A stretch of DNA of 64,000 nt from Styela clava (taxonomy: Eukaryota). Under the pieces are notes generated by a model, which saw only the letters and a program-made list of their open reading frames with translations, had not been told where the DNA came from and did no database searches. Positions 18,193-62,147 of this stretch are shown here, piece after piece (position 1 is the stretch's first letter; the number at the start of each line of letters is the position of its first letter). Position numbers and translations under genes: made by a program. The stretch is taken from positions 16,864,001-16,928,000 of the forward strand of contig NC_135253.1 of NCBI RefSeq assembly GCF_964204865.1, in the 5' to 3' direction.

Positions 18193-18846
18193 TTACATTT
18201 CATATTTTTTAAATTCCATTCCATCTGGTGCCTTGACATCAGTTTTTTCCTTCCTTATATCACCCCAATTCGTGCTGAGCACAGTTCCCCCAGATTCTGA
18301 AAAGGATTTATTCATTGCTTTTCTCAAGTTCTCATCGCCATCAGAATATATTTTTTTGAAGAAATTGTTCAAGGCTTCATCTCCTTCTGGTTTTTCATTT
18401 TCTTCCTCGGTTTTGATATCAGCAACAAGTTTATCCCAATCTCTTGTATAATGGGCTGAAGATGGATATTTATTTGCGTCGTCTATATTTGTTGATGCAG
18501 CTGGTGCTGGCATAGGTGCAGTAGGTGAGTTATCTTCACCATGCAGCAAGCTCCACCTTATTCCTTCTGCTTTCATTAATTTGCATTCAATTTTCGTGGA
18601 CATTATGCGCGATGTACATTTATCTGGTAATATTTTGTGCGATAGTGACAGATTTAAAACAAAGCTTTCCCCAGTGTCACGTTGAATTTTGACTGACAGC
18701 GATTGTTCACCATATTTTGTTGAGAATTCTTCTTGTTTGACTCTTTTTACCATAATTGTTACTACAACGTAAGTGTCGGTCTGGTACCAATCATATTTCG
18801 GAGTAAGTGTTGACGTGTTTGTGGAAGATTCTCCGTTTAACTCCAT
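18193..18846 (-). CDS. SUGT1: SGT1 Hsp90 co-chaperone, CS + SGS domains only (217 aa, single coding exon)
   Basis: KYDWYQT CS-domain start; SGS motifs YPSS..RDWDKL, GDEALNNFFKKIYSDGDE..RKAMNKSFSESGGTVLSTNW, PDGMEFKKY. First in-frame ATG at 18846. Confidence 0.93.
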   Translation of the reverse strand: MELNGESSTNTSTLTPKYDWYQTDTYVVVTIMVKRVKQEEFSTKYGEQSLSVKIQRDTGESFVLNLSLSHKILPDKCTSRIMSTKIECKLMKAEGIRWSLLHGEDNSPTAPMPAPAASTNIDDANKYPSSAHYTRDWDKLVADIKTEEENEKPEGDEALNNFFKKIYSDGDENLRKAMNKSFSESGGTVLSTNWGDIRKEKTDVKAPDGMEFKKYEM

Positions 18847-19031
18847 AGTATTGCTCCTAATGCACCAAAATTTCGCAAAATACAACCATAAACCCCTTTG
18901 ACAAGACGACCGCTCTCAACGCACGGAGTAAGATTACTGGAATATTCCTCAACGGGCAAACCGTTCTTCGTGCACCTTTGTCGCCATTCAGTGTATAAAT
19001 CCCGAGATAGCTTGAAATTATACTGAGACAT
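18837..19031 (-). other. Candidate 64-aa upstream ORF overlapping the SGT1 start codon
   Basis: ATG 2 nt after a TTTCAG acceptor-like site; stop TAA lies inside ATGGAGTTAA of SGT1 in a different frame. Confidence 0.3.
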
Positions 19032-19544: not shown

Positions 19545-25024
<5,480 letters not shown>

Positions 25025-26878: not shown

Positions 26879-28906
26879 TTAATACTTTCTTCGCAATCTA
26901 TCATTTTCAATACGCAATCTTTCAATTTCTTGTAATAGGAGAGGATTTACAGATGACTGCTCAGCAAGTTGCCTTATTCTCTCATTTTGTTCCGCAAACA
27001 TTTTAATCAATTGCAAATGCAAATGTCTTAGTTCATCACGAATGTTATCTTCATGTTCTTCCACCATCTCTCGTACAGTGTTTTGTAAAAAATCGAGCTG
27101 ATATTGAAAAGGATTTGATTGAATATAGTCTGGTTGTTGATGGGGTGTTGACGACGCATCGGTGACTGCACCACCATTTACAAAATCATTTAAAGTGGAA
27201 TCCTCACTCTGCGGTCGGAATTTCCCAGAAGCATTTTCGCTGGTTGGACTGAGAGAGGAATTCGATGCTGTTGCGCCATTAACTGATATCGCTGATGCAC
27301 TGTTCATAAGAGGAGTTGAATGATTTACCCTTGTATCACTCCGTGAGCCTCTGCCCAGCTGTCCACTGATGCTACCCCGAGCTGTGCTCTCCTCTTCTCT
27401 AGTGAATGGAGTATGAGCTTTATTTATTTCCCCATTTTGTTCTGAGGGCAAACGATTAGCAGAGTTTCTTGTAATAGGATGAATGAAACCAGAGTTTGGA
27501 AGCAAAGACCCCCTGCTTGTCCTTTGTGGTTTGTTTTGACTGTGGTATGCAGGGGTGAATGCTGCATCATCTTGTATGCTATCATTCACACTAGCAACAG
27601 GAGAGAATATTCCCTCACAGTACGAGCCCATAGTGTCTCTTCGAATTGATGCAACACTTCGATTTGCAGGAGTTTGAAGACCTATATTTTTTTCAAGTTG
27701 GCTATTCCTACCAGGTATGATTTTATTGGTAGGACTAATAATACCATCACCATTTATCGGTTTTATCTCATTGGATGAAACTTCAATATCAGGAACTTTG
27801 TTTGACCAGGATCTTCTGTTCTTTGCGTGATCTTGTGGTGACTTAGCATTGCTTTTGAATTTTTCTGATGCTGAAGGCTTCAGTTCATCCTTTTGTTGTG
27901 TATCTTTTTTTTGTGTTTTCTGCCCAGACTGTTTAGAAGAACTAGATCTCGATGTCCTTGAGCTTTTTCGAAGATATTTTTGTTTACTTGTTTGTGAAAC
28001 AAGCCTTTGTATTGAGGTTGAGTGGGCGTGAATACTGTATAAAGGTTCTTCGGCTTTCCTTAAATCATATTTATAAATGTTCCCCATGGAGCTTCCTGCA
28101 CATACATGGACACCATTACTTAAAAAACATACTGCAGTCAATGGTTGACTACTGTTTATAGTTTTAACAACATTATTACCCTGAATGTCATAAAATATAA
28201 CCTTTTTGTCCAATCCACACGATGAGAGTAGTAAATGATTCAAAGGGGAAAACGATAAATCCATTGCAGGGGCATCATGAGATGTAAATACATGTTTCGT
28301 CGCTTGTTTTTCAGTATTCCAGATATGAACAGCCCCATCGTCTGATGTTGTACCCAATGTAGTTGTCACCCACGGTGACTGTTCCAATCCACGTACAGAC
28401 TGAGGTTTAGATGCTTTTAATTTTGTACAAACAGAACCAGATTCTATTTTCCATACAATAATTTCCCCTGCAGCACATGCAGAAACTACTTTGTCTTCAG
28501 CTATTTTATCAATACGTTTGACTGGTGACTGATGGCACTCATTGAAAGTCTTCACTCTCTTTCCAGTTTTGCAATTCCATAAATTTATATCCCCTGTGGT
28601 GCCACCAGAAAATAGAGAGGAGCCACTGTGTCCAAAACAAACAGAAGTTTGTTCAGTGCTTTCAGAGAGTTCTCGATAGTTTATATTATTATTTCCTCCA
28701 CTGCTTGCCCAATCATACAAGACAATACCTCCAGTTGTGGATACACTTGCCAGTTCAGTATTATCATAATTCCATGCAACATCTTTAAAGTTTGAACCAG
28801 ATGAAGAATCATGGCAATTATACTGCCTTAATGTTCTCATATGTTCTGCATCCCATACCTTGACACTGTCACTTGCTGACACAAACATTGAGACTGAATC
28901 TTGCAT
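26879..28906 (-). CDS. NEDD1: NEDD1 / GCP-WD gamma-tubulin ring complex targeting factor (675 aa, intronless CDS)
   Basis: MQD..FVSASDSVKVWD start; WD40 repeats (SDDGAVHIWN, HDAPAMDLSFSPLNHLLLSSCGLDKKVIFYD, GSSMGNIYKYDLR); S/T-rich linker; C-terminal FQ..F.QN.V.E..LHLQLIKMF..SVNPLLLQEIERLRIENDRLR. Confidence 0.95.
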   Translation of the reverse strand: MQDSVSMFVSASDSVKVWDAEHMRTLRQYNCHDSSSGSNFKDVAWNYDNTELASVSTTGGIVLYDWASSGGNNNINYRELSESTEQTSVCFGHSGSSLFSGGTTGDINLWNCKTGKRVKTFNECHQSPVKRIDKIAEDKVVSACAAGEIIVWKIESGSVCTKLKASKPQSVRGLEQSPWVTTTLGTTSDDGAVHIWNTEKQATKHVFTSHDAPAMDLSFSPLNHLLLSSCGLDKKVIFYDIQGNNVVKTINSSQPLTAVCFLSNGVHVCAGSSMGNIYKYDLRKAEEPLYSIHAHSTSIQRLVSQTSKQKYLRKSSRTSRSSSSKQSGQKTQKKDTQQKDELKPSASEKFKSNAKSPQDHAKNRRSWSNKVPDIEVSSNEIKPINGDGIISPTNKIIPGRNSQLEKNIGLQTPANRSVASIRRDTMGSYCEGIFSPVASVNDSIQDDAAFTPAYHSQNKPQRTSRGSLLPNSGFIHPITRNSANRLPSEQNGEINKAHTPFTREEESTARGSISGQLGRGSRSDTRVNHSTPLMNSASAISVNGATASNSSLSPTSENASGKFRPQSEDSTLNDFVNGGAVTDASSTPHQQPDYIQSNPFQYQLDFLQNTVREMVEEHEDNIRDELRHLHLQLIKMFAEQNERIRQLAEQSSVNPLLLQEIERLRIENDRLRRKY

Positions 28907-29695
28907 GTTCAAATCTTTTCCATTGGATGTGTTAAAATTTTTGAAAAATCATCCCTGGTTCATTTAAACATGGTTGAGAGTCATATAGACATATTACTAT
29001 TATTAATTATACAATGCTATAGAAATTTAAAACATGATATAGCCTAAATGTATAAATTCCACAAATTTCAATTCTGATATAACATAAAAATCAACTACTG
29101 TAAATGCTTTATTCCTCATTTTTGTAGTTATGTGTACAATGAAAGCAAACTTTTGCCGCTTTATTTTCATGAGTTCGTTAACATTTAATAACTGATCAAT
29201 GTCAACAACGTTTAAAGAAAATCTGTATAAGTTACCGTACATATCATTCAGTCATTCCCACATTCTCACTGTCTCAACAAGAATTAATAAAGACTTGCAT
29301 ATCTAGCCTACTTATAAACTTATGCCAAATTTGTTAAAAAATTTATACAAATATATTTAATGCGCATGCAACATGGAGACAGACCGAGTTAATAATACAG
29401 TGTTAAATTCCTTCTCTCCAATAATACACCTAAATTTTGAATTCGATAACAAATTTCAGAATTTGGATTCAATTCACAGATTCATACAGACGTATAAACT
29501 TGTTGACTTGCCTTACCCCTCTACCGGTAGTCTACCCAGTTACCAGTACGTACCCGACTAGGGTATCTATAAACCTAGTCAGATCCTTCTGATTTTTTTC
29601 ATGCATCTAAAACAAATAATTGGCTAACTAATCCTTTACCATAGCCTACCGGACGTGGACTGATAACGGGACAAAAGCCATGGTACGGTACCGGT

Positions 29696-40585: not shown

Positions 40586-44344
<3,759 letters not shown>

Positions 44345-48470: not shown

Positions 48471-50040
48471 AAATAAAAATATTACCCACACTGATTAGCC
48501 TGGGTAAATATCCAATAGATGCACTTGAGTCTAGTACTGGAATTTAGAAATAATAAATTGTTACCGGTAGGCACTTTTTTAGGCACTTATTTAGGCACTT
48601 CGAAAAAAAGGTGAAATGGACGTAGTAACTCCTAGAAAGATAATGAATTAGTTCAAAATATTTAAATTAAATGTTGAACGCGAAAATTGCAACAGTTAAA
48701 CCCAATAACGATTTTTAAAACGTAGTATTGAAGGGAGACGCACGCGCTCTGTCACCACGTATGCTAGGCACATATTTAGACACTTCGAAAAATAAAGAAA
48801 ATGGCAATTATCACTAATAAAAGACAGAGAAATAAACATATTACCCACCCTGATTAGCCTGGGTAACTATCCAATAGATGCACTTGAGTCTAGTACTGGA
48901 ATTTAGAAATAATAAATTGTTACCGGTAGGCACTTTTTTAGGCACTTATTTAGGCACTTCGAAAAAAAGGTGAAATGGACGTAGTAACTCCTAGAAAGAT
49001 AATGAACTAGTTCAAAATATTTAAATTAAATGTTGAACGCGAAAATTGCAACAGTTAAACCCAATAACGATTTTTAAAACGTAGTATTGAAGGGAGACGC
49101 ACGCGCTCTGTCACCACGTATGCTAGGCACATATTTAGACACTTCGAAAAATAAAGAAAATGGCAATTATCACTAATAAAAGACAGATAAATAAACATAT
49201 TACCCACCCTGATTAGCCTGGGCAAATATCCAATAGATGCACTTAAGTCTAGTACTGGAATTTAGGAATAATAAATTGTTACCGGTGGGCACTTCGAAAA
49301 AAAGGTGAAATGTAGTAACTCCTAAAAAGATAATAAATTAGTTCAAAATATTTAAATTAAATGTTGAACGCGGAAATTGCAACAGGTATACCCAATAACG
49401 ATTTTTAAAACATAGTATCAAAGGGAGACGCACGCGCTCTGTCACCACATATGCTAGGCACATATTTAGACACTTCGAAATATAAAGAAAATGGTAATTA
49501 TCATGAATAAAAATACAGAAAATAAAAATATTAGTCAAAATAATTAGCCTATTTGAATATCCGATGAATGCACTTGAGTCTAGTAGTGATATTTGAGAAT
49601 AATAAATTGTTACCGGTAGGCACTTTTTAGTCACTTATTTAGATACTTCTAAAAATGCGTAAAATGGGCGTAATAACTTTTGAAATGATAATGAATTAGT
49701 TTAAAATATTTAAATTAAAAAATTAATATGCAAATTGCAACAAGTAAACCCAATGATAATGTTTAAAACGTAGTATTATAAGGAGGCGCACGCGTTCTAT
49801 CAACGCATATGCTAGGCACATATTAAGCACTTCGAAAAATAAAGAAAATGGGATTGATGGGACTAGTTAAACGCATTATAAAACTTGAATATTGATCATC
49901 TGAAGTACAATAAGTAAACCAATAAATGAAGTTTAAAATGTAGTATCAGACGCAGTCGCGCTGGATATACCTAGAAGAAAATGAGATTTATCACCAATAA
50001 ATCGCCATGAAATAAGTATATATTCGTCATAAAAGGTATC
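48471..50040 (+). repeat. Left arm: ~4.5 tandem copies of a ~330-359 bp unit
   Basis: ATTACCCAC.CTGATTAGCC at 48481, 48840 and 49199 (period 359); diverged copies at ~49530 and ~49900. Confidence 0.92.
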
Positions 50041-51414
50041 CTGGCCATATTTTAATCATGTTTTTTTTTTCGATTGAATTTGTTGTCGGTTTAGCTGATT
50101 ACGAAATTAATATGCATTCATATGCGATGTACACAATTGATTCTAGTAGTATCAATTAAAAATGTTGAATTGGTACCGGGTCCAGAGAGACTGCACATGA
50201 ATATATATATAGTTTATTCTGTGTTTTTCCCTTGAACATTTAATTAAAAATTTAAAAACACCTGTGACTTGAATAAATTTATTAATGACGGACAAAAAAT
50301 CATGGAAATATATTTGATTAAACATTTAAAAAATTGAAACCGTTATAAAAATACACCGAGTTCATAATGTTTTCTGTGATACACATTCTAGCAATTAAAG
50401 ACACATATCCGACTAACGAACTTATTGTTCTTTTAATTGAGAATGGTAAATTAAGATCGGTGGCATAATTGCAGGTATTTTGGAAAATAGGAAAGTGGGC
50501 GTTGCCAATAAAACTATTATATAGGACTTTAATTATTTTAATTATAGCATTTACCAAACTTACGTAGCATACGAACATCTAAAGTTTTGTTATCTGGAAG
50601 GAACTTTATTTGGTAAAACGTAGCTAAAAAATCTATTGTATAATATTGATGTCGCTCTATTATATTTTCACTACGACATATCGGCGAAACCTGAGAGCTG
50701 TGAAGCACTAGCGATCATACTTTCTGATTCATTTTATAAACTGCAAGACCTAGATTAATTAATATATTTAGGGCATCGTGATTGGGGAGACTGTATACTA
50801 TTTTACAAACATACTGTGCTGTCAAAAATCATTTCAAAATTATTAAATGTTGAACATTTATAACGAAAATTAATCTGTAAATAAGCTGCCATGAAACTTT
50901 ATGTCAATATACAGTATATATATACAGTCGCTGGTGAATAATTTTTTAACAGCTCAAAATCCAAAATAAGCAGAGACTGTAAAGAGGTCCACAATCTCAC
51001 ATTTTAAAAAGAGATATTGAAATACGATAGTAAAACACTACTTAATGGTTTACATTGCAAATTTGTTACGAAAAGTTGTGAAAAAAATAGGATGTAATGC
51101 AGCTCAATTATCCGAAGAAGATGAAACACCTGGTAAATCAGCGTTTTCTAGCAAGGAGGAATTCGTTCTTAGTAAAAAGTGTTGTTTTATAGTACAAAAA
51201 TATCGTTTAGTCATCACTACTATTTTAACACATATATATATATAAAGACCAATTTCAAACTATGCCAAAGTTGTGTATCATTCAATAATGATTTTAGAAG
51301 GCACAGCAAATGGGGTCTACGCAAATTTAAGTGGGAATACAGAGTTTCAAAATGGAAAAAGGGCGGAAAAGATTGAAAACCGCCAAGTTAAATGATATAC
51401 TGTCAAATACAGGT

Positions 51415-54374
51415 TTATTGCATACACCTATTGCAAACCCAATACATTTTTAAATCAAAATTATTTTGGCATTGATTGTGGTACCATTTACGACACCAGC
51501 AGCATTTGGCTTGGAAAAACTCACGAGCATTGCCAGGACAGGTGGTGCTCTCGCAGATTGACCAGTTCGAATTATCCATTGAATATATAGAAGTAGAATC
51601 GATTATTAAATCACTTGTTTCTCCAAAAATTTCGGCTTGAGAAAAATATTTTATTATTTTTGTTGTGAGACCACCGTCCTGAACTTTTTTTGGGGATTTC
51701 CTGCTCAATTTTCGTTTTAAATATAGATATTCTCCCTATTGTCTTGCAACCAGACCGTTAATAGGGGCAAAAGGTAACTGAGACAAAACGAAGAAAACAT
51801 TACATACAACGAATATTCCGCAGTCCGAGGAGTTGTTTTGCTGGGGTGTATCGGAATAAACAAATCGCTTCCACTCCAGTATGTTCGGGCAGCGGTCGAT
51901 TGCTGCGTATGAGGAATGTAATATTCTCATACATATGTCAATGGTGTTTTTTGACTGGCAAACATTGCGACCTGCCCTCCAGGAATCAAACAAACCAATC
52001 TCTTTTCTATCTAAATTTGCCACGGCGAGCTGCCAATGTACTTCTGTAAAATTTACAACAAAGACGAACAGGTCGTGATTCAGAGCTTCGTACCTACTGA
52101 GGAACTCTGCTACACATCTCCAATTTCCATGTTGCGCAGCTTGGAATATAGTACTTGGCACTACGAGAACCTGTTGATGTTTCTCCAAGTCCTCAACGAT
52201 TTGCTCGACAGCTAGGTTTACGCAGTCGTCAGTCAACCATTGGCCAGGTTTGAAAAATGCCAAGGTATTATCTGAGAATTGGGATTTCATTGTAGATAAT
52301 TCTTTTTCCCACTCCCCATTTCCCCAATTATTCGCAGGATGTTTTGGCGTTGATGTTTTAGGCAATTCAGCATCACTCTCAATTAATTGCGAGTTATTGC
52401 GGGACGCGTCAAATAAATTATTTGCAAGTGAATCCGGAGCTGATATTACATTATAGTGATACTCTTTTTGCCTGACTTTTCGTCCGGATTTTCCTTTGAT
52501 ATGTCTCTGTTTCTTTCGTAAGGCTGATAATGAAAACTTTGTTTTTTTGTCTAATTGTTGAGTCTGCAGACAAATATCCACTGCCTTTAAGTGCCAGCAT
52601 TCTTTTTCACCAAGACAGCTACATATTCTCGGGTCGATGGTTACGGCGATCCGCGCATTTGTATAGGGATTACATATCACGAATGTTCCGGATTGGTTTT
52701 CTAATGTGACACCATGTATTGACACACAGTCCTCAGCAATTCTTTTTTGTGGCTTTCTGTCAGGTGGAGAGAGATTTTCGGGAATACGGTTGCCTTTTAT
52801 TTGTCTGTATATGTCGCTCATCGAAAGAAGTTTTGGAATATTTTCATAATTCGTTACCTTTCTTTTTACTCCTGGAAGTAATTGAAATCGACCAAGACCC
52901 ATTTCCGCCATTTTAAAATCATATTCGTAGGTTTTCGTGATTTTGAACAATATTAAAGTCATATCGTCGGCACGACGCTCTCGGGATTCACATGCATCTT
53001 TCAGTACTTTATTGAAGGATTCACTTGCATTATTGGTGGTGGTGATGTTGTCAAAAGCTCGGAATCTATTCGTTACAATTTTGGAGGCACCTTTGATGAT
53101 GTACGTATTAAGTCGACTGTCGAAATAACTTTTAAATGGCCTCGACCATTTAACAGAAAATTCCATGTATAGCGATTGATAAGATTTAAGATCAGCGCAG
53201 TCTATCAATTGTTCCACGTGGTCTTTGTACACTTTAATATCATGCGCAGTTCCTTTATTTTTGCTTAATCCAATATTCCACGTCTCGTAAAATGTGATTA
53301 GTGCATTATACGTTTTTAAGCCATTGCTGCTTTTTTATTACATTTGTTATCGAGAATTCCCTGTCCGTTGGAATTGGAATATCACTGTCGTTTTCCACTT
53401 TAAGTGCCGTTTTTACGAATGAGAAAAGAAGCTCGTGATTTTCCTGCGATTTCCTTTCGTGAAGAAGGAAACAAACAGGGAAAATTGGATCGCCAACTAA
53501 ATTTGTTTTCCTCATGACAAGTGGGGAGATGAAGAAATCGCCAAGTTCAAACGTCGTGTCGTACGATAACGATTGCTTACACGAATTTTTAAATTTTAAA
53601 AACTTACAAATTTCCATTGCAGCGACATCTATGATGAAATCTGTGGCCATAACAATAGCCAAGCCAGGAATGAGAAGCATCGCACGGACAAAATTTGGTA
53701 GTTCAGTTTGGAGCTCGCAAATCGAATATATTTCATCCCGACATTTTTGTGATTGTATGGATGTCGAATAAGCAACGTTTCTTACTTGTTTTATGTCACG
53801 TGGGCGATCAACCGGTATTGTTGGAGTTGGATCTTGAGGTTTCGAATTTAGTCGACAATACACATCGTGTGGAGAAAGATCGTAATCAAGTTGGTTTTTG
53901 ATTTCAGTGAATACAGATTTTTTCGTGGGATAAAATAACTTGTTTTCATTTTTACAGCCACCGTGAGCAGTGTCAAAATACCTTGCAGAAGTTTCTCCTA
54001 GATAATGAACCAATACGTACCAACACAAACCATCTTTGCGTTGGAATTCGCTAACAATTTTCTTGAAGTTAAGGTGGTCTCTGTTTGCTCCCTTTGGATC
54101 TTTGAGGAACCATTTTCGGCGAATGAGCTTACCATTTGCAACTTCCCTTTTTCCAGCTCCAATCCACCTATACTGATCGGACAAATAATCTTTCGCATTT
54201 TTTTTCGTTACACTTGAAGATGTATACCTCTCCTGCATGTGGTTTGACTGGTGGATCGGTGGCAATTTTTTCTCTGGGCACCTTACCGTTTTCACATGTT
54301 AGAAGAAGATCGATTATATTTTTTGCTTTCAATATAGAAGTAAACGACTGTAGATATACAACGTTTCTTGACAT
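51415..54374 (-). pseudogene. Disrupted MULE transposase fused to SWIM finger, Ulp1 (C48) protease and PHD-like finger (~980 aa reconstructed)
   Basis: DDE residues SYDTTF / PTDRE / NNASESFN; CxxH motif (CTNH); SWIM CSCLGEKECWH; Ulp1 motifs GQWLTD, VHW, FDS, QQNNSSDCG; CCWCRKWYHNQC..WVCNRC. Lesions: frameshift at the T8 run 54198-54205, stop at 53306, frameshift ~53270, in-frame stop at 51736. Confidence 0.88.
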
Positions 54375-55545
54375 AATAAATGCGACGTGACGCGGATAAA
54401 GATTCTATCGGCACAGGCATTGAACGAATTGACTATAGACCCTTCCCCGAGCATCGACTTCTTTATGTACTTCGTGACATTGGCTAATCAGCAAGATGCA
54501 AAAAGTGACGTAACAATGCCCCCTTTTTGCATCCACTCAGACACTTTTCTCACTCAGACAGATTTTCAGGCGTGGTTTTAAACATTACCTCATTTTCGCG
54601 TTTTTGAACTCTTTTCGCCAATTTTTAGTTGTCTTTCGGAAATGTAAATATAAATCAGATAATTCAATGCTCACTATGTCTTTTTAGAAGTTTTAATTTA
54701 ATCACAGTAATAAGAAATTGGTGTTGAAATAGCTGTGATAGACTAGGCTAAAATTCCTCACCGTTACTTCTAAAACACAGATTATTGTCCGCGATGAATC
54801 ATAATGTTGGTTTGAAACAAATACCCCATTTTACAGGGGCCAACTCGCGAAACCACTAATAAAATATCCCCGAAAATTTTGCAATGGTAAAGTATAGGAA
54901 GATTCTTTCGGGGGTCAAAGGTCGGGGAAAGGTCCATTGCAATTGATTTGAGACATATATTGTTTCCAGACAATTGCGTATCACCACTGCTTTAAATAAT
55001 GAACTCTTTGAACCCTGGCGTCTCTGAGCTAGCAAGATTAACTAGTATGACCAATATCGTACAACTCCCTTTAATACTACGTTTAAAAGATTGTTATTGG
55101 GTTTACCTGTTGCACTTTGCATGTTCAACATTTAATTTTGACTATTTTTAACTAATTCATTATCTTTGTGAAAGTTATAAATCCCATGTTACCTTTTTCC
55201 TAAGTGCCTAATTGATGGTACCTACCGGTGACAATTTAAATTTTTTAAATGGCACTAATAAACTGAAGCGCATATTCACATAGGCTAATTAGCGTGAATA
55301 ATATTTTTATTTCTCACCCTTTTATTGGTGATAATTCTCATTTTTTTCTATTTTCGAAATGCCTTAATAAGTACCTAGCATATTTGGTGATCCTTCTAAT
55401 ACTACGTTTTGAATATTATCATTGTTTTTACTTGTTGCACTTCGCGTGTGCAGCATTTAATTTGACTACTTTTAACTAATTCATTAATTATGTTTTTAAA
55501 AGAGTTATTACGCTCATTTTAATTTTTTTTTTTTCGAACTGCCTA

Positions 55546-56094
55546 TCGTGTTTTCCCGAAAATATGACCTACCCTGAAAATAAGACCTAGCCTGAATTTT
55601 AGGAATTATATATAATACAAGAGAGCTATGCTCAAATATATGGACACGTAGAGTCACATAATTTTGATGACGTCATAGCGAAAAAAAAAGTAATAGCCTT
55701 CTGGAGAAAATTTTTATCTTTAACCACTGAAAATTTCAAAGCAATTGGTCCAGTATTCGAAGAGAAAAGCGACTTTTTAAAAACGTGTCAAAGAACAACA
55801 ACAACAACATAATATTGAAACGATCGTTATGTCCACTACGTGTCCAATAAGCCCTCCCCTTAAAGTAAGACCTAGTCAATAACGCGAATTAATTGACCTA
55901 GCGGATAGCAAGAAATCTCTCCTACACGTTTTAAATACCTAATAATCTACGGTTAACAGATATTTTCAATAAAAACGTGGTATTCATAAGTAAATTGATT
56001 TCGGTTTTCATATTTTGCATATTTGAAAATATCTTAATTCTTTACTTTGTAATTTTGTTTTTGATAAATTAAAATATAAGACATCCCCCGAAAA
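55546..56094. mobile_element. Tc1/mariner-superfamily (pogo/Tc2-like) MITE, one end lost
   Basis: Begins after TA with TCGTGTTTTCCCGAAAATATGACC; internal repeats of CCC.GAAAATAAGACCTAG; interrupts the array motif GTGCCTA|CCGGTAACAATTT. Confidence 0.6.
55617..55847 (-). mobile_element. Helentron-associated non-autonomous element (HINE/DINE-1-like structure), apparently complete
   Basis: 11-bp sub-terminal IR TGGACACGTAG (55641) / CTACGTGTCCA (55836); hairpin GAGC-TAT-GCTC (55623-55633); internal (CAA)n; no clear TSD. Other fragments at 24445, 29905, 47143, 57514. Confidence 0.7.
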
Positions 56095-58725
56095 ACAATT
56101 TATTATTCTCAAATACCACTAATAGACTCAAGTGCATCTATTGGATATTCAGCCAGTCCCAGGCTAATCATTTTGACTAATATTTTTATTTTATTTATTG
56201 GTGATTATTGCCCTTTTCTTTTTTTTTCGATGTGCCTAAATATGTGGTGACAGAGCGCGTGCGTCTCCCTTTAATACTACGTTTTAAAAATCGTTATTGG
56301 ATTTAACTGTTGCAATTTTCGCGTTCAACATTTAATTTAAATATTTTGAACTAATTCATTATCTTTCTAGGAGTTACTACGTCCATTTCACCTTTTTTCC
56401 GAAGTGCCTAAATAAGTGCCTACCGATAACAATTTATTATTTCTAAATTCCAGTACTAGACTCAAGTGCATCTATTGGATATTTGTCCAGGCTAATCAGT
56501 GTGGGTAATATTTTTATTTCTCTGTCTACTATTGGTGATAATTCCGATTTCCTTCTTTTTTCGAAGTGCCTAAATATGTGCCTAGCATATGTGGTGACTG
56601 AGCGCGTGTGACTCCTTTAATACTACGTTTTAAATATTGTTATTCGGTTCACCCATTGCAATTTGCGTGTTCAATATTTGATTTGACAATTTTCAACTAA
56701 TTAATTATCATTTTAAAAGTTATTACGCTCATTTCACATTTTTTTCGAAGCGCCTAAATAAGTGCCTATCGGTAACAATTTAATATTTCTAAATTCCAGT
56801 ACTAGACTCAAGTGCATCTATTGGATATTTACCCAGGCTAATCAGTGTAGGTAATATTTTTATTTCTCTGTCTTTTATTAGTGATAATTGCCATTTTCTT
56901 TATTTTTCGAAGTGTCTAAATATGTGCCCAGCATATGTGGTGACAGAGCGCGTGCGTCTCCCTTTAATACTACGTTTCAAAAATCGTTATTGGATTTAAC
57001 TGTTGCAATTTTTGCGTTCAACATTTAATTTAAATATTTTAACTAATTCATCTTTTTTTCCGAAGTGCCTAAATAAGTGCCTACCGGTAACAATTTATTA
57101 TTTCTAAATTCCAGTACTAGACTCAAGTGCATCTATTGGATATTTACCCAGGCTAATCAGTGTGGGTAATATGTTTATGTCTCTGTCTTTTATTAGTGAT
57201 AATTGCCATTTTCTTTATTTTCCGAAGTGTCTAAATATGTGCCTAGCATATGTGGTGACCAAGCGCATGCGACATCCTTTAATACCATGTTTTAAATATT
57301 GTTATTGAGTTTGCCCGTTGCAATTTGCGTTTTCAACATTTAATTTGACCATTTTTAACTAATTAATTATGTTTTTAAAAGGTATTACGCCCTTTTTACT
57401 TTATTTTCCAAAGTGCCTAATTTGCAAGTGCCTACTTTTAGTCCGTCCCCTATTTCTGCCCTGCCAATCGCCAAATTCCGCTTCATGATTTTTTTGCAGG
57501 TACGCTCTTTCTAAACAAGAGAGCAATCCTAAAATATATGGACACGACAGCCAAATCGATACATTTCACCCACAATTTTCCCAAAATCATTTTCTTGAAG
57601 CTGAACCTGTGGACCAGTGAACTTACTACCAGTACCGGTACTAGTACCAATACCAAGATTGCACTCTGATCCGTCAAAAAAAAAATACCCGGACTACTTC
57701 AGCCTTATCAGGTCCTGTGACAATGACGATCCATGCGTCTTGTGTCAACGCGAATCGAAATGCTAAATGATTCGACTCACAATTATAGCATCAATTAATT
57801 TAAAGTACCTTACCTGTTACATGACCTACCAAGATTGCCGGCATCAAAAAACTTTCTACTGACAGCGTTGCCAGATCCTAATGATGAAAAAAGTCAGATC
57901 ATAAAATAAAAAAGACAACAATTTTACAAAGTACGAAATTAAAATTTAGTTTAGAAAAGTACCATTAACACATAGAAATTTCCTCTTTAAATAGGTTAGT
58001 ATAGGATAGGTCATAAATTAGGACAACATGAAATCGAGGTGAGCTTTTTAATACATTGGATGAAAGTTTGACAATCGTCACGTGTGAAAGTCTTCGTCAA
58101 ATTTACAAATGCGGCGCCCATAATGTTTTGTTTGAGCATTCATACCTTAACAACTTACCTTGTGTAGTCATCAATGGTTTGAGTACAGAAATTGGTGAGG
58201 CAGTTAGGGTTAGGAATACAGTTTGAATTGAAAGTTATCCTGATTTACGAAATATTTTTTTTAGTTGGCTTAGGAGTCTCAGTCATGGTCTTGCATGCTA
58301 ACCCTCACAAATCTCCAAATAACCATTACGTTAACTAAATATTATTGAATTATTTTTTCTGTCCTTGAATCAAATGTATCACAGTGCAGCAGTGTGTACT
58401 TTGTTTTAATAATAAAATATCTCTCTGTCTATGTTTCATTTTACTTCTATTCCCCTGCATCTAATTTGTTCATCAACAGATCGAAAAAGCACTGCTGTAC
58501 TAGTGGCCTACTTCCCTTTGTTGATAGAAACTATATTGGTTTCGTGACCGATTCTCTCAGTGATGTCTTAATAATTCACCCTAGTTGGCAAGTGGCAGAA
58601 ATGTTTTAGAGCTAGCCAAAGAACGAAATTGCATTCAAGTTCATATTTGGATATAGTGCAAGATATCACAATCAGACTGACCAAACTCATTTGTTTTTTA
58701 ATAAGTTAATTCATTTACATATGAC

Positions 58726-60069
58726 ATGGTTAAGCAGGTCATTTTCGAAGACTCACATAGAAAATACCTGGAAAAAGTAGCTGCACAAACCAAGTGTACA
58801 GCAGGTTTAATTTTGGGACACATAACAAGCAACAAAGATTATATTGCAAGCTTTATAAGATGTCCATCTCCGACTGATGGTGAAAACGTTAAGCAATGGA
58901 ATGGTGTCAAAGACGTTGAAGGTTCTTGGGTGGCTGGTCATTCAGCACAAATAATTTCGAGTCTATCTGGAGGTATTAATATTGTTGGTGTATTTTTGAT
59001 TGCACCAACTGAAGAAGCAAAACAAGTATCAGAAAAACTGAAGCAAATCGTTTATCAAGCGTACAAGCTTGTATCAAAAACATTAAGTGAAGTAGACAAT
59101 TATCTCCAGGATTCAGATGAATCTTTATTTTGGACAGTTATGCATGTTGATGTCAAAAATGGTTTGGTTGCTTCTTGTCGTCAATATGATGTAAAAGACA
59201 ACAAAGATATCGGTAGGCCTATGGATCTGAAAATAGTTGATGCTCCAATACAGTGGGAATGCTGTCAAACAACCTTGAATATCAATAAAGTTAAATCAGA
59301 AAGAGTTCTAACCCAATGCATTTCTGCCGATATTTTTGAATCTATGTTGAAACTTTTTCAAGACCAGGTGAAAAATGCTATTGTTACTATAGAACAGAAA
59401 CACAGAGTTGAAACAGATGTACTAAATCCTTCATCCACTAGCAATCACTCTGCAAAAGGGTCTAAGAAAAAGAAACCTGTCGTTAAGTCACAATCGGCAA
59501 AAACATTGTCATGTCAAATTTTCATCCCAACCTCTTTACAGATAGAAAATCCTGATTTGTGCCATAGTCTTCAGGTTTGTGGAAGCATTACAGCAAAAGC
59601 ATATTTGCCTCCAAACTCAACAGTAGGACAAGCAGTGATAGCACTTAAAAGAGATATTCTGCAGACTATTCACCAAAGAATTGAAATATTATCTGAGGAT
59701 CCAATTGACCTATCAGGTGGGGAACAAAAAATTTCAGTCTCTTTTCCACGAAGAGTATTTGCAAGTAATGGCCAAAATGAAACTATTCTGTATTCGGATT
59801 ATATACTACATGATGAGCCTTTGAACGACTGCTTGGAAAGATTTAAAGACAATTTAGATATGGAGTTGCAATCCAATGAACTTAGTATGGAAAACTCTTT
59901 TGAAAAGTTCCAACCAGAACAAGATTGTTCTCGGGGTGAAGCCATCGAGAGCGAGATGGAAGGAATACATGAAGGGGCGAGTAAAACTAATGCTGTTATT
60001 GCTCTTGTGGCAACAGCTGTAGCATTCTTAGGGTGGATATTCTCTGGTCTTGTTATAAATGAAAATTAA
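58726..60069 (+). CDS. ODR4: ODR-4 homolog, ER membrane GPCR maturation factor (447 aa, intronless CDS)
   Basis: GLILG..KDYI...CP, WVAGHSAQI...LSGGINIVGVF, AVIALKRDILQTI..R.EIL.ED, FPRRVF, YSDY..DE; C-terminal TM anchor. Confidence 0.9.
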   Translation: MVKQVIFEDSHRKYLEKVAAQTKCTAGLILGHITSNKDYIASFIRCPSPTDGENVKQWNGVKDVEGSWVAGHSAQIISSLSGGINIVGVFLIAPTEEAKQVSEKLKQIVYQAYKLVSKTLSEVDNYLQDSDESLFWTVMHVDVKNGLVASCRQYDVKDNKDIGRPMDLKIVDAPIQWECCQTTLNINKVKSERVLTQCISADIFESMLKLFQDQVKNAIVTIEQKHRVETDVLNPSSTSNHSAKGSKKKKPVVKSQSAKTLSCQIFIPTSLQIENPDLCHSLQVCGSITAKAYLPPNSTVGQAVIALKRDILQTIHQRIEILSEDPIDLSGGEQKISVSFPRRVFASNGQNETILYSDYILHDEPLNDCLERFKDNLDMELQSNELSMENSFEKFQPEQDCSRGEAIESEMEGIHEGASKTNAVIALVATAVAFLGWIFSGLVINEN

Positions 60070-61073: not shown

Positions 61074-62147
61074 TCATAAAACCACATCTGCATGCTCATG
61101 ACTATGTGGTAGCATGCCGTATTCACACAAAAATGTCTCCAAGTCATTCGCATAAAAGTCATTTCCCAGTGTGTCACTAATTCTTACAAAGTTCCCAATG
61201 ACCAGGTTCTCTTTGTAAACAATAATGGTTGGAAGACCATTTTCCAAGAAATTTGATGACAATCTAGCCTCTCCAGTATTAATCCGACAAAACTTTACAG
61301 TTTTGTATTTTGAGGCCAAAATTCTCATACATCCATGTACAGTGGCACAAGCTGGTGTGTCATCATCAAAGATGTGTATTATAACTGTTACATGCTTGTC
61401 TTCTTTTTCAATGGCATCGACAAAGTTATCCCTGTTAAGCTCGATTACATCACCAAATACAATTTTTGACCATTTTTTCGCAACCATCTCTTGCATTTCA
61501 ATTATTCTTTTCTTTTTATAATATTCCATAAAGTCTTCATCATCGCTTAAATCAAATTCATCTTTTCCTGCCTGTTTCTTATCATTCTCTTCTTCTTTGA
61601 ATGACTTGCAAGTCATTGCAAGTTTTCTGCAAAGTTCATCTTTTTCCATGATATCTCGCTCTCTCTTTTCAGTCTCTAGTTGTTTATATCTTCTCCAATC
61701 TTCTATCACCCCTTTAGGCCCTGAGAGAAATAGCAAAACATTCAAAATCACAATATATACAAACATTCTCATATATTCATATACAAATTACACGAATACA
61801 ATTAAGAACATCACAAACAGCATATTATTATATTCAAATGATACTAATGTCTATTTGTTACAGTGTTAGGAAATAGTTAAAAAGTTAGATTGTCCATATT
61901 TCCAATAAGGCTTGAAACACCAAACAAAACAGTAGAAAACAATTTAAATTTAACCTGTCTGAGTTGCTTTGCCATCGAATCTTGACTCAGGAATGAACGT
62001 TGGTGCTTTAGTGCTCGATCTTATCGATTCTTGTGCATCACTTGAACCTTCATCACCAGATGCTGAATTTCCTTCGTCTTCTGATGAACTACAATAGTAA
62101 TCCACTTTTTCACCCAAAAGCTTATCATCCATGTTATTTAAAGCCAT
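61074..62147 (-). CDS. PDCL: Phosducin-like protein, PhLP1/phosducin subgroup (279 aa; exons 62147-61955, 61720-61074)
   Basis: DDKLLGEKVDYYCSSSEDE, spliced TGPKGVIEDWRRYKQLE (G-beta-gamma binding motif), thioredoxin-like C-domain (VKFC, LPTIIVYK..GNFVR..LG.DF...DLETFL.EYG). Confidence 0.95.

Follow-up and report, generated by a model that had tools for sequence, protein, structure and literature searches.

The 64,000-bp stretch of Styela clava DNA analysed here (the window; G000:C4:16864001-16928000, part of the 377-Mb assembly that was searched) carries a dead, one-ended copy of a recently mobile animal transposon, a cut-and-paste foldback Mutator-like element (MULE) of about 9 kb. Its single intronless gene of about 985 codons runs on the minus strand, in four frames, from an ATG at 54374 to a stop at 51415. 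The domain order is a CG-1/WRKY-like DNA-binding domain, a DDE/CxxH catalytic core, a SWIM finger, a Ulp1 protease and a variant PHD finger. The features of the element are as follows.

48471..49853, plus strand: left foldback arm with some 3.9 tandem units (325-359 bp each); its outer ~293 bp, terminal motif included, are absent
49854..51414, no strand: 3' non-coding internal region, common to the sister copy on C16 and two internally deleted copies
51418..51564, minus strand: C-terminal PHD-type C4HC3 zinc finger, variant (W-x-x-C ... C-x2-C-R-x-W-x-H-x2-C ... C-x2-C)
51736..51738, minus strand: premature stop TAG between Ulp1 and PHD, a Trp codon in the sister copy
51760..52260, minus strand: Ulp1/Peptidase_C48 domain (Pfam PF02902, E 9e-14)
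His 52038-52036, Asp 51987-51985, Gln 51840-51838 and Cys 51822-51820, minus strand: Ulp1 catalytic residues, H-D-Q-C intact
52477..52491, minus strand: conserved basic KSGRK motif after SWIM, seen in the alignment; possibly a nuclear or DNA-contact motif
52591..52623, minus strand: SWIM-type finger CxC-x5-CxH, motif in the sequence
53017..53566, minus strand: MULE catalytic core (D1 53560-53558, D2 53365-53363, CxxH 53305-53294, E 53022-53020)
53957..54374, minus strand: start codon (54374) and N-terminal CG-1-like/WRKY-GCM1-fold DNA-binding domain, putative, with a +1 frameshift near 54198
55065..55545, minus strand: inner units of the arm, decayed to 70-74% identity with the unit
55546..56093, no strand: ~550-bp insertion of unrelated DNA that interrupts the right arm; it consists of very high-copy repeats and is absent from the C16 copy
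56094..57449, minus strand: right foldback arm, terminus intact (GGGACGGACTAAAAGTAGGCAC read inward), with oriented AGGCAC motifs
57450..57458, plus strand: expected 9-bp target-site duplication, right copy only, placed from the family's duplication length; left partner lost

The gene is broken by one extra nucleotide near 54198, a TAA at 53306-53308, another extra nucleotide near 53263 and the TAG at 51736-51738; the TAA and the second frameshift interrupt the catalytic core. The preliminary description had joined four open reading frame (ORF) fragments into one frame of about 980 amino acids by way of two frameshifts and two stops, which is exactly what the sister copy confirms. Because all four breaks are open in that copy, and the two inserted bases are also absent from contigs of other sequencing runs, the one-ORF reading is sound without repair. 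For this family, a spliced gene and a separate protease gene were both rejected: each break is a single-base change or a stop, the sister copy is open at these places, and the relatives are single ORFs. Intact relatives (P0005, P0035, P0036 and P0060) carry transposase, SWIM, Ulp1 and PHD in the same order in one ORF, as had been proposed for the window.

Tandem arrays with units of 359 and 346 bp lie at 48471-49294 and 56230-57048, opposed across about 6 kb and mutually complementary (up to 349 nt at 88% and 293 nt at 95%). By unit mapping, 48471-49851 and 56094-57434 hold about 3.9 units each, and 55065-55545 holds 1.5 decayed ones. The kb-long inverted arrays reported earlier on either side of the gene were confirmed, and are the terminal inverted repeats (TIRs) of a family with 9-bp target-site duplications (TSDs). 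The span originally given, 48471..57450, held on the right once its end was moved to 57449; on the left, the loss of ~293 bp of the family terminus had been overlooked. The left TIR of the C16 copy aligns to the window arm only from TIR base 294 onward, and no forward terminus lies nearby upstream among the 63 exact termini of the genome. Lacking these ~293 bp, the window copy has one end and no TSD pair and is therefore immobile. The 9-mer at 57450..57458 has one other occurrence in the window, at 20073. Copies of the motif AGGCAC all point one way within an arm, with 11 forward and 0 reverse occurrences in the left arm and 0 and 11 in the right, against 9 and 7 in the other 55 kb of the window; the arms of the C16 copy have 16/0 and 0/23. 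By analogy with Muta1 (PMC5499845), AGGCAC is likely the transposase-binding repeat of the arms.

The insertion in the right arm (55546-56093) comprises nested non-autonomous repeats, one of them starting AACAAGAGAGC, that occur at very high copy in read contigs and that we take to resemble Helitron-type and Tc1/pogo-type miniature elements; a similar short repeat lies near 57516 and 47150. For one DNA sample, a contig follows the left flank to 48473 and then continues with other letters, and the right-flank contig begins at 57449. This may represent a different allele, but it was unreadable and was not used. Contigs from runs guessed to be RNA span parts of the gene at low depth and are no proof of its expression.

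The terminus GGGACGGACTAAAAGTAGGCAC occurs exactly 63 times in the genome (31 forward, 32 reverse), and its reversed control not at all. The TSD survey covered 21 loci, namely 20 paired-arm loci among the 150 listed of 250 arm matches plus the C16 copy. An exact 9-bp TSD was found at 16/21; among the other five, three agree by eye once one or two additional G are allowed for, one does not match and one is without its right end in the retrieved stretch. At the level of the family, these duplications fall within the 8-11 bp of MULEs, the window copy having a single end. The long TIRs of MULEs are present as well, as a 1.7-kb inverted match at 92.6% in the C16 copy (G000:C16:19142565-19151653). 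That copy is complete at 9,089 bp, is 97.6% identical to the window over 5379 nt of interior, and has an 8-nt deletion of its own. Among 22 stretches compared with its interior, three have interior pieces, all non-coding, and the others are arm-only. Two protein searches (39 candidates scored in each) returned the window copy, the C16 copy and older decayed copies, but no fully intact copy in the assembly; copy counts from such searches are lower bounds. The genome search for intact copies with both termini and 9-11-bp TSDs, suggested in the preliminary description, thus yielded the complete C16 copy and the TSDs, with every coding copy that was recovered being damaged. An arm-only copy at G000:C9:3118188-3123226 has about ten units in one arm and three in the other, an expansion of the arm toward a satellite. 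An old family copy is adjoined by an intact 989-codon endonuclease/reverse-transcriptase-like ORF (G000:C17:19359637-19362603), by eye of the long interspersed nuclear element type.

Pfam was run on the window's own frames and isolated segments; the other domain assignments rest on homologues and on profiles built without the window. Peptidase_C48 alone scored above cut-off in the window frames, with MULE weak (E 0.012) and no match for SWIM, PHD or CG-1 on isolated segments, so that the Pfam check proposed earlier bore out the protease directly, and the transposase core, SWIM and PHD through homologues. KRTDAP matches in window segments were below cut-off and were treated as chance. The profiles built without the window matched the MULE core (1e-26), the CG-1-like N-terminal domain (1e-5) and, weakly, the PHD finger (E 1.6). 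All domains named in the preliminary description are present, but it had overlooked the N-terminal one. In relatives this domain matches CG-1 (PF03859) above cut-off; there is a weak WRKY4 match (E 0.065), and its Atlas neighbours are FAR1, GCM and ALS2CR8. A WRKY-GCM1 fold is described for MULE DNA-binding domains (PMC1702500), with which the sequence of the window domain is consistent. A limited literature search found no paper tying CG-1 to transposases.

The core motifs are SYDTTF (D1), TDRE (D2), CTNH (CxxH) and NNASES (E), giving a DDE triad with CxxH between D2 and E. A clade profile matched the solved Mutator-family transposase 6XG8 weakly (E 0.039). Pfam SWIM is weak in close relatives and above cut-off in three relatives (P0019, P0057 and P0117). 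The triad, CxxH and SWIM motifs read earlier from the window are all there, in register with the relatives.

The Ulp1/C48 domain with intact H-D-Q-C residues, called earlier, was confirmed: the Pfam match is strong, the residues can be read in the window, and they are intact in 27/32 Ulp1-bearing relatives (three of the five misses end at the protein's end). Fold and catalytic residues are those of the Ulp1/SENP (C48) family. The best matches in a PDB profile search were Ulp1/SENP1 (1e-16; 63 bits, versus 35 bits for a NEDD8 protease), and the modelled protease of the C16 copy returned SENP2, Ulp1 and SENP1 as best matches in Foldseek (E 1e-10), with the NEDD8 protease next (6e-8). The domain is therefore a predicted SUMO protease, the ranking of both sequence and model matches favouring SUMO proteases over the NEDD8 protease. 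Against two older subfamilies of the same genome, simple pairwise counts on decayed copies, with no formal test, gave ratios of nonsynonymous to synonymous change (dN/dS) for Ulp1 of 0.46 (159 codons) and 0.32 (161); the corresponding values were 0.35 and 0.24 for the MULE core and 0.69 and 0.55 for the linker, which places Ulp1 near the core and below the linker. From these counts the protease looks to be under purifying selection.

A separate family of 11-12-kb elements (G000:C5:18270124-18282106, C8:15520169-15532609, C17:12055559-12067379 and C5:6406145-6417561) has common ends and inverted arms that are almost identical (up to 5.4 kb at 99.9%). In these arms lies a SENP-like ORF of host type and without introns, which at C5 and C8 was seen on both strands. 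This family is a second case of repeat-driven SUMO-protease amplification in this genome.

The terminal PHD-like finger reported earlier was upheld, though it has no Pfam match of its own: it fits the C4HC3 pattern, and all eight ligands are in register with relatives that pass Pfam PHD. Canonical H3K4me3-reading PHD fingers have an aromatic cage of Tyr/Met/Trp and an Asp after the third Cys. In the alignment, the window finger keeps two Trp, has Gln in place of Met and lacks the Asp, and so departs from the canonical H3K4me3-reader set; the full set is kept in some distant relatives (P0035 and P0112). Promoter targeting by the PHD finger of the window element, which had been suggested, is weakened by this loss of Met and Asp in its subclade, and is doubtful on sequence grounds.

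Relatives found with the C16 transposase frame number 32 and are 27-42% identical to it; those with names come from a hemichordate, a sponge and an insect, and one has a bacterial label. They match MULE, Transposase_mut, SWIM and CG-1, and the long ones also C48. With a profile of the transposase part, 1,058 clusters were found at E up to 1e-30 (50%-identity library). Domains were counted in 40 relatives that extend well past the transposase, taken from the best 150 clusters (three of the 40 were among the seeds of the clade profiles). By clade profiles, 32 have Ulp1, 17 PHD, 14 both and 5 neither; by Pfam alone, the counts are 22 for Ulp1, 11 for PHD and 4 for both. P0009, of the same clade, has a C-terminal Macro domain (E 2.5e-34) in place of Ulp1-PHD. 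Judged by these sequences, the protease is a long-kept, selected part of the clade, yet not universal.

A sister foldback MULE family is represented by elements of 13-14.5 kb at C6:23733200-23747723 and C8:5467964-5480993 (L082, L083, L033-L036), with arms of short tandem units, termini that are related to those of the window family and occur exactly 106 times in the genome, and 9-bp TSDs (exact in one element, with a mismatch in the other). Each element has two divergent genes that share their first ~380 bp at 94-95% identity. The first encodes a transposase with D, D, E and CxxH that ends after SWIM; it is frameshifted in both copies, and no Ulp1 or PHD remnant was found downstream of it. 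The second is open over 1,013 codons on C6 and retains the D, D, E residues together with Ulp1 and PHD. It is the sole one of 60 aligned cores without the CxxH His, and also lacks the HGN His of the N-terminal domain. Loss of the conserved CxxH His probably means loss of cutting (compare PMC1702500). In the FastTree phylogeny the two genes group as closest relatives with support 1.00, and synonymous differences between them approach saturation (pS 0.74, pN 0.35). The arrangement, seen in two copies in one genome, looks like a division of labour after duplication. Outside this genome, the two-gene layout was not found in homologue searches with the C6 1013-aa protein (1 and 0 matches).

Elsewhere in the window, long uninterrupted frames specify host-type proteins: ODR4-like (58705-60069, plus strand), WD40 (26882-28948, minus), SGT1-like with CS and SGS domains (18196-18915, minus) and phosducin-like (61077-61787, minus). 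The element lies 1.3 kb upstream of the ODR4-like ORF, a single case. A 428-codon open frame at 41312-42595 (plus strand) had no Pfam match.

Taken together, we lean with modest confidence towards the view that the single protein of this dead foldback MULE copy bound the arms, cut and pasted the element, and tethered a predicted deSUMOylase at chromatin, relieving silencing. The N-terminal CG-1/WRKY-like domain would bind the oriented AGGCAC repeats, with more repeats giving stronger binding, as in Muta1, where subterminal repeats raise both binding and excision (PMC5499845). The DDE/CxxH core would cut and join the DNA. Ulp1 would act as a transposase-tethered SUMO isopeptidase that removes SUMO from nearby chromatin proteins, to the benefit of the element, either lifting SUMO-dependent silencing or clearing SUMO marks from the transposition complex. 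The PHD finger would contribute contact with chromatin, though in this subclade probably not by canonical H3K4me3 read-out, and the arm-only derivatives, which make up most of the family, would be mobilised in trans. In flies, piRNA-guided silencing needs SUMOylation of Panoramix (10.1101/2021.07.27.453956); anti-silencing in cis by a tethered Ulp1, as first suggested for this element, is plausible. Several points weigh against this account. The Ulp1 domain is only about 20% identical to SUMO proteases, and the position following W-L-x is variable among relatives (D in 15/32), so that SUMO specificity remains a prediction; the dN/dS values are informal counts, and the window versus C16 comparison is uninformative, with too few changes. 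The window PHD finger scores E 1.6 against canonical PHD seeds, and its AlphaFold model is unusable (predicted local distance difference test score below 50). The sister-family transposase has its 106 termini without Ulp1-PHD and P0009 bears a Macro domain, which indicates that a fused protease is not required for mobility.

The protease might instead serve the transposition reaction, freeing the transposase, or repair factors at the cut ends, of SUMO or another ubiquitin-like tag, and so preventing removal of the DNA-bound complex or aiding repair. Such a role has been proposed for the Ulp1/OTU domains of Ginger and Mutator elements (PMC2836005); the fusion places the protease at the cut ends, and the conservation of Ulp1 (dN/dS, H-D-Q-C) fits it equally well. 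We regard it as rather unlikely all the same, as in the sister family Ulp1-PHD sits on a protein of its own, the CxxH-defective one, and not on the active transposase; this suits a chromatin role that can be separated, although that protein could still join the complex. More unlikely again is self-processing by the C48 domain, or activity on NEDD8 or ubiquitin instead of SUMO: its fold is common to the NEDD8 protease and bacterial deubiquitinases in Foldseek comparisons of the model, and polyprotein processing has been proposed for OTU-fused MULEs (PMC1702500), but the best sequence and fold matches are SUMO proteases. That Ulp1-PHD is passive cargo, captured once and of no benefit to the element, is the least probable explanation and already largely refuted. 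MULEs do capture host genes (PMC12903978) and 5/40 long relatives have neither domain; yet the catalytic residues are intact in 27/32 very divergent relatives, Ulp1 dN/dS is well below 1, and the in-frame fusion is spread across the tree.

Beyond the preferred reading of a tethered deSUMOylase, we tentatively raise the possibility that a large, barely described animal MULE clade (>1,000 protein clusters) parks an active deSUMOylase on its own arrays via a CG-1-type domain, as a sequence-specific anti-silencing device and animal counterpart of plant VANC/TnpA; the sister family would then split the job between a protease-free transposase and a cutting-defective paralogue delivering Ulp1-PHD to the arms. 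No functional test of a transposon Ulp1 was found in the literature searched, including the accessible parts of 10.64898/2026.08.24.746577, PMC13547354, PMC12903978, PMC3417536 and 10.1101/2021.09.26.461848. In this clade, one-ORF proteins exist in natural intact form, the terminal and repeated motif is defined, and a sister family separates cutting from protease, which makes it a tractable system for asking whether animal DNA transposons counter SUMO-dependent silencing.

Among known systems, the window transposase appears by eye to be neither Phantom nor Rehavkus, and is closest to oyster MuDR-1/2_CGi of the group MULE-Cg (group 15, Dupeyron et al. 2019, PMC6446971), a comparison made with sequences from the PMC13359780 supplement. 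The segment LSYDTTFELGDF is identical in MuDR-2_CGi, and shared features include P-[VL]-x-F-x-[IL]-H-[DE]-R-K, DRE, CxxH, TNN-x-x-ES-x-N, one ORF and an animal host. The two MULE-Cg members listed are 4.3 and 5.1 kb long, have TIRs of 48 and 296 bp, and are tabulated with neither a zinc finger nor a further domain (PMC6446971), whereas the window element is 9 kb, with 1.4-2.1-kb foldback arms, a CG-1-like domain, SWIM, Ulp1 and PHD. An assignment to the Phantom-type MULEs, whose foldback-like arms had been cited earlier, did not stand. Phantom/Muta1/Tm1 elements (PMC5499845, PMC3169594) likewise have a MULE transposase, 8-9-bp TSDs and TIRs of subterminal tandem repeats, but the repeats of Muta1 are 12 bp long in a 145-bp TIR and those of the window are ~350-bp units, each with several motifs. 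Phantom is defined by an N-terminal FLYWCH finger; none was matched in the window, the sister copy or the 59 relatives scanned, with CG-1 matches instead in relatives (one low-ranked Atlas neighbour row of the N-terminal domain has FLYWCH in 14% of its members). Phantom membership was rejected on the FLYWCH-free, CG-1/WRKY-like N-terminal domain and the MULE-Cg-like DDE domain. Rehavkus elements (PMC6446971, 10.1101/2024.12.02.626372) share the 9-bp TSD, one ORF, a PHD finger and long tandem-repeat TIRs, at 5-18 kb. Their catalytic domains differ: by eye, the two rows compared (Rehavkus-1_DY and -2_NVi) have no motifs in common with the window clade, lack the CxxH Cys and have a much longer insert. 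Rehavkus membership was rejected on this basis in spite of the similar layout; elements of this kind may be labelled Rehavkus wrongly if layout is the only guide. The exact family was thought at first to be possibly undescribed; its layout has precedents. C-terminal Ulp1 and PHD domains on Ginger1 and Mutator DDE transposases were aligned in Fig. 1e of Bao et al. 2010 (PMC2836005), where Ulp1-bearing Mutators are cited from hydra, lancelet and plants; these resemble the window protein as far as their description goes. The window copy itself is a dead, ordinary example. Transposase-borne Ulp1 having been noted since at least 2010, the main interest lies in the function of the protease, together with the split sister family.

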